Origin: Eledone cirrhosa
Lineage: Eukaryota
Assembly (NCBI GenBank): GCA_964016885.1
Contig: OZ024743.1
Coordinates: 243,970,001 to 244,034,000 of the forward strand
Length of the DNA stretch: 64,000 bases
Direction of reading: 5' to 3'
The number at the start of each line of letters is the position of its first letter. Within the stretch, counting starts at the first letter, position 1. The notes beneath the pieces are model-generated. The model searched no databases and was not told where the DNA came from. It saw nothing but the letters and a program-made list of their open reading frames with translations. The position numbers and the translations under genes were made by a program. Below, piece by piece: positions 21,683 through 60,390 of the stretch.

Positions 21683-21892
21683 GAAAAAGTATGACCCCGA
21701 CGGCAGAGCTCAAGCCGTTTCAACGGCTATTTCTGGACGGCTATTTCTATGACTGTCCAGAAATAGCCGTCGAAACGGCTTGAGCTCTGCCGTCGGGGTC
21801 ATACTTTTTCTTATTACCCACTCTACTACCCTAAGTATTGAGTACTCTGGTGCGTTATGGTCCATCTGGTTCCTTACCACATTTCCTTCGTT
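21683..21892 (+). mobile_element. Fold-back solo PLE-type LTR, family X
   Basis: 56-bp inverted arms at 21683-21738 and 21755-21810, plus an 82-bp unpaired extension, inside (TA)n. Contains the HHR 3' half GAAAcggc..gccgTCggggtc. Homologues at 47356 and 60185. Confidence 0.7.
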
Positions 21893-22057
21893 ATATATAT
21901 ATATCTTGAAGTTATATAATACATTGATACATACATACATACATACCCCCCCCCCCCCCCCCCACATATATATATATATATATATATATATATATATATA
22001 TATATATATATATATAAATATATACATATATACCCATTCTGTTATTACAGCAGCAGA

Positions 22058-22142
22058 GATCCGACGAGCTTTTGATCCCAGAGTCGGACCAGATCGATAT
22101 TAATCGAACCTTGAGCTGATCAATAGCGAAACGCGCGTCACC
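22058..22142 (+). ncRNA. Hammerhead-like motif with variant core (CCGACGA) and long stem II
   Basis: CCGACGA gcttttgatc...gatcaatagc GAAA cgcgcg TC. Stem III is palindromic, stem I is weak. Truncated homologue at 34010-34145. Confidence 0.55.
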
Positions 22143-23190
22143 AATCAATAAACGTAATGAAGGCTTAACAAATCGTCCTTGTATTATATATATATATATA
22201 TATATATATATATATATATATATATATATATATATATATATATATATATATATATATATCAACTAGTCTGTATACAATGATAATATTATGCTGCAACATT
22301 AATAAAACGCTTATAGCCTACAGCAGACCCAAAAGTGTCGCCACTATAAAAGTATTGCCCGGGCGGACCGCCCTCTCGCCCCCTCTAGCTACGTTACTGG
22401 TAGTTTGAATATATATTCAATATTTCGGGCTGCTATTTCTAGTAGTGACAGGTTGTGTGACCACACAAAGAGCCGTTGGTGTCTCAGTAGGCTCAGTGAC
22501 TGCTTTCTCTATTTTATTGTCTCGGTGACAACTTACTACTATAACATTCATCAAAGTTTCTAATCATAATACATAGTCCGTCGTTTGTTCTCTTGTATTC
22601 TATTAAAATCTACTATATTCTATTATATTCATAACTGCCCTCCGTACCCGTATTGTATGGGATGGAAGGTTTGCATGTGGAAAGTCTATTGATCTTACAA
22701 GTATGTTTTACAATGGCAGCTTCCGGATTATATTTGGGAATACCTTTCGTCTTCTATATTGAAACCATAGCAAACATCCGGGTTCTCTGATACTGCATTC
22801 ACCTAGCGGATGATTAAATCGACATCAAATGACGTAGTCTACTTTACCACACTTCCGACATTTACATCTCGCTGCTTTTAATCATTTATTCTCAGCCATC
22901 CCTCTTTCTTTTCTTTCCATTCTATTTTTGCTTCTTTAAGTACTTAAGCGAGGTCACACACATACACATCCGTACACAACATACGCACATACACACATAC
23001 ACACACACATGCACGCACACAATATATATATATATATATATATATATAGCTTTTATATTATGTCCAACATAACAACCACTTATCCCAGCCCTTTTCTAAA
23101 TGAAATTTGTACTGCTTTATCCTTTGTTCTGTAAACTCGTTTGTTGTAGCTTGGTGACCAATATTAATATGCATTACCATTATTATTATT

Positions 23191-23580
23191 CAGAAACTTT
23201 CATCTTCGGCCAAGCCCTCAAAAACTTCTTTAAGTTCCGCCTAGATATGAAGGGAAAGTGGAGTGGAATGTGCTTCCCAGGGGAGCCAAATCAATTTCCT
23301 AAAAAGTAACACTCCATTTTAGCAAGTGGGGATGTCTTTAAAGGGTAGCTCTAAAAAACATATAGTGGAATGGCTGATGCAGCGGGTGTCGCTGTCTGTT
23401 CTCCACCACAATGTTTTCACTATCTTATTCACGGGGCGCAGATGAGATATATCAACAACAACAAATGTGTAGAGCTTGCCCTTTCCTTTCTTTCTTCCTT
23501 TTTGTTTTCATTATTTAATCTTCTCCCTTCCCCTTTTTTTTGTTTTCTCTTCCTGTTTATTATTTTAATACTTAAAAAAA
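23191..23580 (+). mobile_element. Short degraded Tx1 3' fragment preceded by (ATT)4
   Basis: ETFIFGQALKNFFKFRL matches Tx1 DTFLFGQSLINFFKFHL. Its downstream part recurs at about 24830-24950. Confidence 0.6.
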
Positions 23581-23723
23581 AAAGAGACAAAGCTTATGGT
23601 GTCGATAAAATATAAAATAAAGTATCAGTAACGCACTTGGTTCGATTTAATCAACCCCCACCAACCCCCCAAAACTGTTGGTCTTGTGCCTAAATCAGAA
23701 ATCATTATTGTATACTTCTGTGT

Positions 23724-23913
23724 GGATTGGGCGGTGGATTGGCAGTATCGGTAGAGGGTCGGACGCCATGCTTTCTAGCATAGTTACGTCCGTTTACAGT
23801 CTGAGTTCAAATCCCGCCGAGGTTAACTTTGCCTTTCATCCTTACGGGGTCGATAAAATAAAGTACCAGTAATGTACTGGGTAATTGCTGGCCTTGTGCC
23901 TAAAGTAGAAACA
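23724..23913 (+). mobile_element. SINE family A with 20-bp TSD, inserted in the tail of another family A fragment (23592-23703)
   Basis: TSD attattgtatacttctgtgt at 23704-23723 and 23914-23933. A and B boxes present. Confidence 0.9.
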
Positions 23914-57059: not shown

Positions 57060-57775
57060 TGTGTTGTTTCTCTCTTTTCTTCTTGTTGTCCTGCTTCCTT
57101 TGCAATATCAATGCTTACATCATTGATTAGCTTCTGCCATATTGGTCTGTCATCGACATAATGCCTCCTTGATCGTGTCCTTATACCTCAAGATAGGGCA
57201 TCCTACATGTCGAACACCATCCTCAAGCTCACCAAAAAGCTGTTTCTTTACAAGTCTACAATCATGCATGCGGACGACATGTACAACCCATCTGATTCTA
57301 TTCCTTACGAGGATAGTTTCAATGCTGGAAGACTTTGCACGTTTCAGTACCTCATCGTTTGTGACAATGTGGTCACATTTGATGTTGAGAATAAACCTAA
57401 GGTGTCGTTGCTCAACTGTTCTTAATTGTGTTATGTGGTAACGATGGCGAGTCCACACCTTACTTCCATATGCCACGAGAGGAGTTACACCTTGGTTATA
57501 AACTTTAAGATTAGTCTCAGATGTCAGTTCGCTGGATTCAAAGACTCTCACTCTTAGTTTATCTACAGCACAAGCGGCAGCTTGAATGCGTGCACTAAGC
57601 TCTTCATCTAGATTACTGTCTTTGGTGACATAGATGCCAAGATATTTGAAGCGTTCCACTCTGGCGAGTTTTTGTCCATCAATGAAAAAAAAAAATGGAA
57701 AGAAATCAACGTGCTGTCCGACAGTCATTGTTTCAGTTTTCTTAGTGGTGACACAAAGGCCCATTTTCAAAGAAA
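57060..57775 (-). mobile_element. RTE-clade LINE RT C-terminal fragment
   Basis: VERFKYLG..LDEELSARIQAA..RIRWVVHVVRMHDCRLVKKQLFGEL..RYKDTIK. Confidence 0.85.
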
Positions 57776-58361
57776 CTGTTATATGCAGCTAACAGTTGCT
57801 GTTGAGCAATGGGACCATTGCAGAAAACAGCGATGTCATCAGCATATTGAGCCTCCCGTATAAAATCATGAAGTATCTTTGTTTTGGACTTGAGGAGACG
57901 AAGATCAAAAATATCACCATCATATCATTTGATCTTCGTTTCCTCAAGTTCAAGACAAAGATACAATTTCTACGATTTCGATCTGCCAGCGCTAATCCGA
58001 CAAAAACCAGCATGCCTGGAAATTATGTAATGCTAGTATGCATTATGTATATTGGCTGGAATCGCGTCTTCGGCCGGAGTTTGCCTCCTTGGAATAGAAA
58101 GATGCGTTAAGCTACCTTGTATACCGCGCTGAAGGGCATAAGTGAGTGTAGTAGTAAACCTACACTTTCAGTGACACGCGACTTCATATTAAAGAGGAGG
58201 TAAGCCAGATCTGACTATTTACAGGAAACACGTTGGTGTTGATTCAAATTGAAAAAGAGAACACGCCAGAACCATTCAACCATATATATATATATGTGTG
58301 TGTGTGTATACGTATATATATATATATACACACACACACACACACATATATATATATATAG

Positions 58362-58580
58362 AAGGAGCGATCGACTTTCGTCAAATCAGACCGAGGAAAC
58401 AATGTTTCCATCGGTTTTTCCAATTGCTAATACTATCTATCGGTCGCAACTCCAGGTGGAAGGAGTAACGTGAAATAAAGTGTCTTGCTCAAAGACATAA
58501 CGCATTTCCCGGTTCGGGATTCGAACTCACAACCTCACGATTGCGAATCCAATTCTCTAACCACTCAGCCACACGCCTTT
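58362..58580 (-). mobile_element. tRNA-derived SINE (family B head)
   Basis: Close copy of 51095-51310. Confidence 0.82.
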
Positions 58581-58693
58581 ACACAGAGTGAGAAATAGTG
58601 AGATTTGAAATAGCACTGATAATATATTTATGGGTCTGTTTTCTTTTTTTTTTACATACATATATATATATATATATATGTGTGTGTGTGTGT

Positions 58694-59090
58694 CAGGTTT
58701 TTGTCGATCTGGCAAAAGCTTTCGATACTTTTAACAGAAATGCATTGTGGAAGGTTCTCCAGAAACTTGGTTGCCCTGATAAGTTCCTTGGTTTGGTTAG
58801 GTCTTTCCATGATGACATGAAGGCTTAGGTTAATGCCAGAGGTAATATGTCGGAGCCTATCTCAGTGAAAAGTGGAGTGAAACAGGGAGATATTCCAGCA
58901 CCGATCGGGTGGAGTCGTGGCAGAGGACGAAAAGGAACTGCGAACCAGGAGGTCGCGGGGGTTTGGAAAAAAGTGAGAAGTGACGGGGTCAGAAGAGAGG
59001 ATACGGAAGGAACGGAGGATATGTCGCCGGAGTGGTAGGGTGATGGGGTGGTAGGTGAGAGGGAAAGGAAGACGGGTGTTAGGAGATAGT
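58694..59090. mobile_element. RTE RT fragment (+, 58694-58883) fused to an inverted fragment of the Neptune-like PLE (-, about 58885-59090)
   Basis: FVDLAKAFD..LQKLGCPDKF..SGVKQGD on +. On -, VFLSLSPTTPSPYHSGDISSV matches 55340-55520. Confidence 0.75.
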
Positions 59091-60184
59091 AATTACTGTT
59101 GCAGCATATATATAAACTTAATTTTATTGGCATATTACAATCGTTTCGATATCGGTCAGCACCAGCACAGGGTATAACCATAATGACAGGGGGCCGACTC
59201 TTTCTTGACATCTCATCAGATATGCGAGTTTATATGTACAAAGACACATTCAAACATTTTGATATATATATATATATACATACATACATATATATATATA
59301 TATATAAGAAAGTGAGTCCATAGAATCATTTGATAAAATATATACAGTATTTCTCCTCCCAATCAGCATAATTAACCACACAAAAAATCAATTAAATGAG
59401 GCTATAAGTTTAAAATGTACATATGAAGAAACAGTAGATAAATAAATGATAGCTATTTTATCCGTGATCAACAGCCACAGAAGATTCACCTAGTATTTCT
59501 AATAGCCCGTAGAAATTGACCAGACAAATAGCCAACCATACACAATTAGGTACAAAATCAAAGTTAGAAGAAAAAATGTACATAAACATACCAAAATTAT
59601 GTTTCTACCCCATGAAGTTTCATTCGCTTTTAGGAAATATCCGATCATGGATAAATTCACGAGTTTCGAAATCATCGGTAACAAACTAAATTGGACAAAG
59701 ATTTTTCTTAAATGATCCCCGCCAGAAACGAATTCAAAATGGCTAAGAACTGTCACGTGGCCAATGGTCAAGTCAGAAAGCTTGTGATGGTGCCTGACGG
59801 CGAGTAGGCTGGTTGCTAGAAAGCGCAGTCGAATACTGCCTAAATTGTTACTCAACCATATGGGAGTATATAAATATATAGGTTTATATATACATATATA
59901 TATATATATATATATATATATATATATATATAGAGAGAGAGAGAGAGAGAGAGACAGGGAGAGATAGATAGATATAGATAAAATACTGTGACTCAGTTGT
60001 CCAGATCACTTTATATCGATAATTAAATCCTTCCCGCGATCAAATGGTAGCAGCGGGACGCTAGTGGAACCTATTCCTTGAGGAAAGTGGTGTCAAACAG
60101 GGTGACAATTTGTACCCACCTACTATTATATATATGTATATATATATATATATGTATATATATATATGTATATATATATATATA

Positions 60185-60390
60185 AAACAAAGAAAGTGTG
60201 GTAAGAAACCAGGTGAACCATAACGCACCAGAGTACTCGATACTTAGGGTAGTAGAGTGAGTAACAGGAAAAGGGTCAGGACCCCTACGGCTGAGCTCCG
60301 GCCGTTTCGACAGCTAGATCCGAACTGAGTTCGGATCTAGCTGTCGAAACGGCCGGAGCTCAGCCGTCGGGATCCTGACTCTTTTCCTGT
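60185..60390 (-). mobile_element. Fold-back solo PLE-type LTR, family X
   Basis: 63-bp arms at 60264-60326 and 60328-60390 (3 mismatches), 1-nt centre. In (TA)n. Confidence 0.75.

Follow-up and report, generated by a model that had tools for sequence, protein, structure and literature searches.

The window analysed here, 64,000 nucleotides of the 3.0-Gb genome assembly of Eledone cirrhosa (GCA_964016885.1, contig OZ024743.1, positions 243,970,001 to 244,034,000), contains six palindromes within or adjoining (TA)n tracts, all from families that are multi-copy and abundant in the genome. Three of them form one family (A, with subfamilies A1, A2 and A3) and consist of the pseudo-long-terminal-repeat (pseudo-LTR) ends of a Hydra-like Penelope element; the others represent families B, C and D. 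The palindromes have two fixed 3′ ends, one each per palindrome, and one sharp 5′ boundary, and either of the two arms may reach further. They are probably abortive Penelope-like insertions. Two complementary DNAs (cDNAs), one started on each side of a break in the (TA)n target, would have copied the element RNA to its likely capped 5′ end, run off there and been joined head to head. An earlier interpretation made from the letters of the window alone (the sequence-only reading) had described the six inverted repeats, which were indeed present at the positions it gave, and had explained them by one cDNA snapping back on hammerhead-ribozyme helices and priming its own second strand. Its Penelope-like parent and non-uniform inversion centres held up and the palindromes are no artefact, but the data do not support the helices as setters of the breakpoints or a single self-primed cDNA.

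Parent element and arm ends

As had been proposed, family A descends from a Penelope-like element, and the pseudo-LTR of this parent carries a motif of the hammerhead type. Long copies contain an open reading frame (ORF) with reverse transcriptase (RT) and C-terminal GIY-YIG motifs, followed in the same sense by a 3′ untranslated region (UTR) and the palindrome sequence; at loci L034, L048, L058 and L319 both sets of motifs were read contiguously with the 3′ UTR and pseudo-LTR. The palindrome sequence with its tail was also present 5′ of the ORF start in most of 30 loci. Since this sequence both precedes and follows the ORF, it is a pseudo-LTR, and ORFs flanked by inverted pseudo-LTR pairs occur among the family A copies. 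The translations contain DKT, a CxC-x5-C linker, CxxC and CxH, and have RWR where the Hydra clade has RWK. A Pfam scan of the parent ORF pieces gave no RT or GIY-YIG match; among the ESM neighbours of the ORF, at 0.93–0.98, a minority of cluster members carried RVT_1 or GIY-YIG. Judged by its sequence motifs the parent is Hydra-like, and it was not filed as a Hydra member because its hammerhead core is not the canonical one.

One family B locus had an ORF similar to that of family A between inverted arms. Family D derives from a tandem unit ~290 bp long (loci L235, L242 and L250); a tRNA-Ser-like gene was present at all five loci scanned, and no canonical hammerhead was found in this parent. 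Family D has fixed ends of the E1/E2 type described below and (TA)n targets, with its 5′ boundary in the tRNA 3′ arm, and is likely a SINE-like (short interspersed element) passenger moved by Penelope machinery. Exact motif matches across the genome numbered 26,906 for A1/A2, 4,550 for A3, 33,417 for B (37.0 kb), 2,267 for C (29.5 kb) and 1,470 for D (34.7 kb); these counts are of arms, not insertions.

Positions in the family A pseudo-LTR are numbered with the A of the 5′ hot spot as +1. The arms came from 100 loci sampled in sequence from one end of a chromosome; the anchor was a motif across the predicted hammerhead cleavage site for 70 of them and the tail for 30. After duplicates, arms less than 60 nt from a locus edge and arms short of +45 had been dropped, 175 distinct arms were kept. 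Their 3′ ends fell at two positions 79 nt apart, with 73 arms at +140 (E1) and 71 at +61 (E2). The 5′ ends were concentrated around +1: 108 lay between −6 and +9, 34 between +10 and +60 and 9 beyond +60, and upstream there were 10 between −100 and −7 and 14 beyond −100. By hand count, the +1 zone held 14 of the 30 tail-anchored arms, which are free of anchor bias, and the cleavage site held 2.

The same boundary was found genome-wide. A total of 13,000 A1/A2 junctions lie in the +1 zone (both arms to +7, centre of at most 14 nt); the number is round, but it is given as a complete count and the local density agrees with it. When Illumina reads of restriction-site-associated DNA (RAD) from another study were mapped to a parent copy, the depth rose from 576 to 12,340 across +1, with no step at the cleavage site. 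Such independent reads also showed loose ends into (AT)n at both E2 and E1 and strand-switch joints at +2 to +5, and the contigs of run X1, possibly the assembly's own sample, gave an 18-fold step across +1. Copies whose 5′ ends are joined directly to (TA)n yielded 614 reverse-strand matches at +1, 133 at +4/+5, 28 at the predicted cleavage site and 8 at −9 to −14, with patterns that differ in length and, for the last class, cover A1 only. The +1 boundary is common to inverted, non-inverted and some ORF-bearing copies. The cleavage site was rejected as the main 5′ end of the copies, few of which start there and where the read depth does not change; self-cleavage is itself predicted from the motif.

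Families B, C, D and A3 each have a +1 boundary of their own, differently placed relative to the ribozyme, and no single helix is common to them. In family B it coincides with the 5′ edge of stem I; 11 of 29 arms ended at 0 to +4 and none at −1 to −18, and 3,921 junctions genome-wide lie within 20 nt above CUGAUGA. In family C, whose core is doubtful, it lies ~30 nt above that core, with 5 of 27 arms at 0 to +3; in family D it falls in the tRNA-like arm (12 of 42 arms at +1 to +5). Rows for A3 were left out of this tally since A1/A2 arms passed the identity filter.

Pairing of the arms and the +1 boundary

Head-to-head pairs consisted of one E1 and one E2 arm in 63 of the 66 sampled cases. The tail-less E2 arm reached further in 31 of these 66 and the E1 arm in 19, with 16 ties, local alignment blurring differences of a few bases; at a lead of at least 15 nt the counts were 15 for E2 and 4 for E1. 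Six pairs had no sequence in common. Some E2 arms extended ~200 nt past the E1 arm (e.g., L013), and both zero-loop joins and joins with the two arms at +1 occurred. The centres themselves showed short microhomologies, blunt joins and templated inserts. Simple snap-back of a single cDNA does not fit these data because six of the 66 pairs share no sequence and either arm may extend further.

A more elaborate form of self-priming can be envisaged in which a single cDNA is extended from E1 to its run-off at +1, then forms a hairpin and serves as its own template as far as E2, with later deletions at the centre hiding the arm that held the loop. This would agree with the arms sharing haplotypes and with the templated sense-strand inserts that follow the +1 stop in several junctions, and PMC3846280 interprets junction palindromes as self-priming on an antisense template. 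The loop should then, however, always be found in the E1 arm, which conflicts with the frequent and often long lead of E2, and neither the pairs without shared sequence nor the zero-loop and both-at-+1 joins are expected; the fold-back stem at +1 is 3 bp long. We consider this route unlikely, while allowing it a modest chance.

Instead, two separate cDNAs would be primed on the two sides of the cut (TA)n target, one starting at E1 and the other at E2. Both would run off at +1, the likely capped 5′ end of the element RNA, and their ends would be joined by host end-joining or by template jumping of the RT. E1 and E2 may correspond to the pair of internal RT starts that was observed in vitro with a Penelope-like element of the anole.

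The arms differed at 141 of 2643 compared positions, which would be expected of old genomic copies but not of library chimeras. Together with the fixed E1 and E2 ends and the strand-switch joints in short reads of another study, this refutes fold-back artefacts of the long-read library, in favour of which nothing was found and to which we assign virtually no probability. Amplification of the whole palindrome as a small non-autonomous unit, resembling a miniature inverted-repeat transposable element or a hairpin retroelement, could explain why certain junction sequences recur many times. It does not explain the dozens of different centres, the mirrored forms or the presence of the same centres across several subfamilies, and the continuous link to RT/endonuclease ORFs and the asymmetric ends also speak against such a unit, which makes this explanation highly improbable.

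Some junctions deserve separate mention. Inserts of 5–20 nt copied from either arm were found at 21739–21754 of the window and at loci L005, L027, L095, L114 and L120, which suggests repeated jumps or a joining that resembles the polymerase-theta type. The two arms of locus L104 (G000:C1:13298600-13301900) differ in subfamily haplotype at three neighbouring sites, and this may be an insertion from two templates. Arm mismatches were not enriched at subfamily-diagnostic sites (21/371 vs 120/2272), so that this test for two RNA templates was negative. A systematic one-base arm difference in the first 30 matches proved to be an effect of query selection and was gone in an unselected sample.

The hammerhead-type motif of family A has the core U3-U-G-A-N7-A8-A in 42 of 43 parent-length copies, with all four bases found at position 7; the search fixed positions 4–6 and a purine at 9. 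Downstream follow G10.1-C11.1, a 9-bp stem II with a loop of ~33 nt, GAAA, a 5–6-bp stem III, GUC and stem I. The motif thus shows the features of a type I hammerhead core (paired 3/8, free 7, GAAA, NUH), with U3-A8 in place of the canonical pair; family B has CUGAUGA. Across A1–A3, 91.7% of cells were paired, with four pairs changed on both sides, and none of 500 shuffles scored as high; most of this signal is one split of A3 against A1/A2, and within A1/A2 no covariation was seen. An Rfam hammerhead search of the window and two parent stretches gave no match.

The inversion centres are sharply clustered, as the sequence-only reading required, yet not on the ribozyme helices. The best cDNA fold-back sites are the 5′ strand of stem II (6–9 bp) and two stem III-related sites (5–6 bp), compared with 3 bp at +1. 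Only one of the 175 arms ended at the stem II site, and a genome-wide pattern search for the native stem II fold-back junction gave no match. Across sites, snap-back stem length correlated negatively with use (rho = −0.25), and family D forms the same palindromes although no canonical hammerhead was found in it. That the helices are the main determinant, the cDNA snapping back on ribozyme-derived hairpins, is consequently very unlikely. In its favour are 411 joins through the AGCCGT microhomology of stems II and III, the type of the 47.4-kb copy (47474), and 288 stem III fold-backs; these 699 joins stand against the 13,000 at +1, a rough ratio given that the pattern lengths differ. Helix-derived microhomology is thus real but minor: the helices supply it for a small class of joins only, and snap-back on them, which these data contradict as the principal cause, is left as a side route.

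The +1 position has properties that may be expected of an RNA 5′ end. A G that is neither parental nor derived from the flank preceded +1 at 13 of 66 loci, compared with 4 of 94 at +4/+5 (hand counts; Fisher p = 0.003); with matched gap length the figure was 8 of 55 (p = 0.033). In other retroelements a base is added opposite the cap. TATA-like boxes occur at −31 in A1, at −29 in A2 and at −30 in two B subfamilies with different spacers. In all families +1 is an A after a pyrimidine, which we take to resemble an initiator. For Penelope and Chlamys-3, PMC8557442 places the transcription start within the pseudo-LTR. From these sequence features we infer that transcription of the element RNA begins at +1, the putative start site in the pseudo-LTR.

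Two joined cDNAs are also compatible with a +1 at which the RT stalls on a folded or protein-bound ribozyme (the loop II edge). Each of the three A subfamilies has its +1 at a distance of 7 nt above the 3′ strand of stem II; the +1 of B coincides with the 5′ edge of stem I, and that of D falls within the tRNA-like arm. The position relative to the ribozyme varies among families, however, stronger stems are passed by the RT without a comparable pile-up, and neither the extra G nor the TATA-like spacing is explained by stalling, which we regard as improbable.

Several observations weigh against run-off and joining of two cDNAs. The arms nearly always belong to one subfamily haplotype, with a clear multi-site switch in just 1 of 56 compared pairs, and some junctions contain templated sense-strand inserts, which show that copying by short fold-back takes place. 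Later asymmetric deletion at the centres could partly produce the arm asymmetry, and the finding that either arm may lead comes from 66 pairs on one chromosome end. A restriction site 5 nt above +1 may partly cause the step in RAD-read depth. Merely 5 of the 27 family C arms end at the boundary of that family. No TATA-like box is present at −30 in A3, C and D, the TATA-like spacing of the B subfamily L174 is 6 nt short, and in family D, whose boundary is in the 3′ arm of a tRNA-like gene, the RT may be halted by structure or by modified bases.

Palindromes and other repeats of the window

The arms of the six palindromes are 95–100% identical (in window order 55/56, 62/65 with a 5-nt gap, 104/108, 55/58, 40/40 and 60/63), and RNA folding of four of them gave z scores of −15 to −22 relative to shuffled sequences. 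All six have a one-sided tail. Five had been counted previously, since the tail of the 29.5-kb copy (~29475–29551) lies outside the interval given for it. The three family A copies had been thought to have lost CUGANGA, but the parental core itself is UUGANAA. Likewise, the stem II assigned to the 21.7- and 60.3-kb copies is the palindrome itself; these copies turn within the native stem II loop, at +2 (with a templated insert) and +1, respectively. The microhomology at 47468–47473 and the turning point of the 37.1-kb copy just above CUGAUGA were as described earlier. In the family C copy the arms overlap by a 6-nt palindrome, ~9–14 nt below the +1 boundary of that family. The single G at 60327 belongs either to the long arm, as its parental position 0, or to the short arm, as an additional base that the cap may have templated. 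Coordinates are listed in Table 1.

Table 1. Arms and junctions of the six palindromes (positions in the window)
Feature	Position	Strand
Family A1 short (E2) arm, element ~+60 to +2	21683..21738	-
Junction insert, 16 nt, templated, partly duplicating the short arm	21739..21754	.
Family A1 long (E1) arm, from +2; in order: stem II 3′ strand, GAAA (21772-21775), stem III, predicted cleavage triplet (21792-21794), stem I 3′ strand, 79-nt tail	21755..21892	+
Family C long arm including tail, with internal deletion	29475..29645	-
Family C short arm	29640..29798	+
Family D short arm, up to the 5′ boundary of the family	34730..34838	-
Family D long arm, tail ~40 nt	34836..34983	+
Family B short arm, up to the family +1 boundary, 6-7 nt above CUGAUGA	37042..37104	-
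Family B long arm: CUGAUGA (37107-37113), short stem II, GAAA-type core, minimal stem III, tail	37106..37234	+
Family A2 long (E1) arm, ends in stem III (+22)	47357..47473	-
Microhomology between the A2 arms, 6 nt, helix-derived (minor junction class, 411 copies)	47468..47473	
Family A2 short (E2) arm, from +11	47468..47515	+
Family A3 long (E1) arm, up to +1	60187..60326	-
Single G separating the A3 arms	60327..60327	.
Family A3 short (E2) arm, start exactly at +1	60328..60389	+

An Rfam match to Plastid-psbJ-2 at 47440–47568, above the gathering score, was rejected as a by-product of the palindrome and (TA)n; this false positive is likely to recur genome-wide.

The window holds further repeats with hammerhead-like features. 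A (TA)n-flanked insert at 22060–22180 contains a variant 5′ core, GAAAC, a 4-nt palindromic loop and GUC, and a related copy lies at ~34042–34134. Two more (TA)n-flanked families, at 29215–29450 (with CUGAUGA) and 36817–37000, both recur at other genomic loci. A further repeat family, with a canonical CUGAUGA...GAAAC core, forms inverted arms of ~200 bp around a 400-bp spacer (52132–52330 and 52690–52898) and is also present at 56098–56575 and 62195–62406. Outside (TA)n, head-to-head inverted repeats of unrelated families were seen at 38309–38677, 49774–50144 and 57873–57964, and a long array of a 15–16-bp tandem repeat with near-palindromic units spans 40657–45306. The segments 1–1554, 8569–11661, 15966–19387, 54667–55473 and 32285–32842 presumably encode RT ORFs like those of long interspersed elements, a Penelope-like RT fragment and a transposase-like fragment, as judged from motifs. 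The window yielded no host gene.

Comparison with known systems

Inverted pseudo-LTRs, tails and (TA)n targeting are known for Penelope-like elements, and PMC8557442 names the origin of the inverted pseudo-LTRs and tails as a next task; in PMC11167929 the later steps of insertion are not validated. The E. cirrhosa genome holds tens of thousands of what may be arrested intermediates, for which the joining of two run-off cDNAs makes predictions at the level of single bases: one E1 and one E2 product, run-off at a single position and an extra G. If it is true, the turning point at +1 would show how Penelope-like elements copy themselves.

Extending this, a retrovirus-like strong-stop mode of replication is conceivable, though we advance it tentatively. 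The RT would start just below the capped 5′ end, run off and have to jump to the 3′ pseudo-LTR via a 41-nt terminal repeat reaching from the start site to the hammerhead cleavage site. Failed jumps on both strands would leave at least 17,000 near-perfect hairpins, possibly a main source of long double-stranded RNA and of A-to-I hyper-editing in this lineage. A retrotransposon that fills a genome with near-perfect hairpins of 40–110 bp is of interest in this respect, as the hairpins would be plausible ADAR substrates if transcribed. PMC5625713 describes lizard Penelope repeats and a palindromic repeat of a frog as heavily edited, and notes that near-perfect double-stranded loci account for an unusually large share in octopus.

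Endonuclease-bearing Penelope-like elements, as described in PMC8557442 and PMC3846280, have the same head-to-head pseudo-LTRs, one-end tail, junction palindrome and microsatellite targets. Here, in contrast, most insertions are two pseudo-LTR ends only (~160–330 bp) and occur in five-digit numbers, the junction is at one position and the tails measure 40–85 nt compared with 30–40 nt. Two cDNAs also agree better with the present data than the self-priming that PMC3846280 proposes.

Poseidon of Anolis, analysed in vitro, offers a parallel for the start sites: two internal RT starts bound the tail, both strands of an AT-rich target are cut and extended, uncleaved RNA serves as substrate, and ribozyme cleavage is not needed (PMC11167929). 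The available text of that paper leaves the later steps open and mentions neither run-off at the 5′ end of the RNA nor E1 and E2 pairing. In the present element, the putative RT starts lie in the 5′ UTR, ~90–170 nt above the ORF.

With the Hydra clade (PMC8557442) family A shares the C-terminal GIY-YIG domain, DKT, the CxC-x5-C linker, CxxC, CxH and (TA)n targets. It differs in RWR for RWK and in its U3-A8 core, whereas canonical hammerheads are reported for that clade; the likeness is one of motifs. U3-A8 replacing C3-G8 within a Penelope pseudo-LTR has a precedent in the Cercyon hammerhead of Schistosoma, for which PMC4209133 also mentions hammerhead pairs 100–700 bp apart on opposite strands. 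Unlike that minimal motif, family A has a full stem III (5–6 bp) and a long branched stem II loop.

No report of start-site run-off or twin priming for Penelope-like elements was found in the literature searched, with subscription papers and supplements outside the search. In L1 twin priming, two primers from one cut target give an inversion joined by microhomology, and retroviral strong-stop DNA is a short cDNA ending at the capped RNA 5′ end. Compared with these, both primers are here placed at fixed internal sites near the RNA 5′ end, there is no poly(A) or tRNA primer, and strand transfer is conjectural. The structure of the palindromes is thus a known one, and what is new is a testable mechanistic signature at very large scale.

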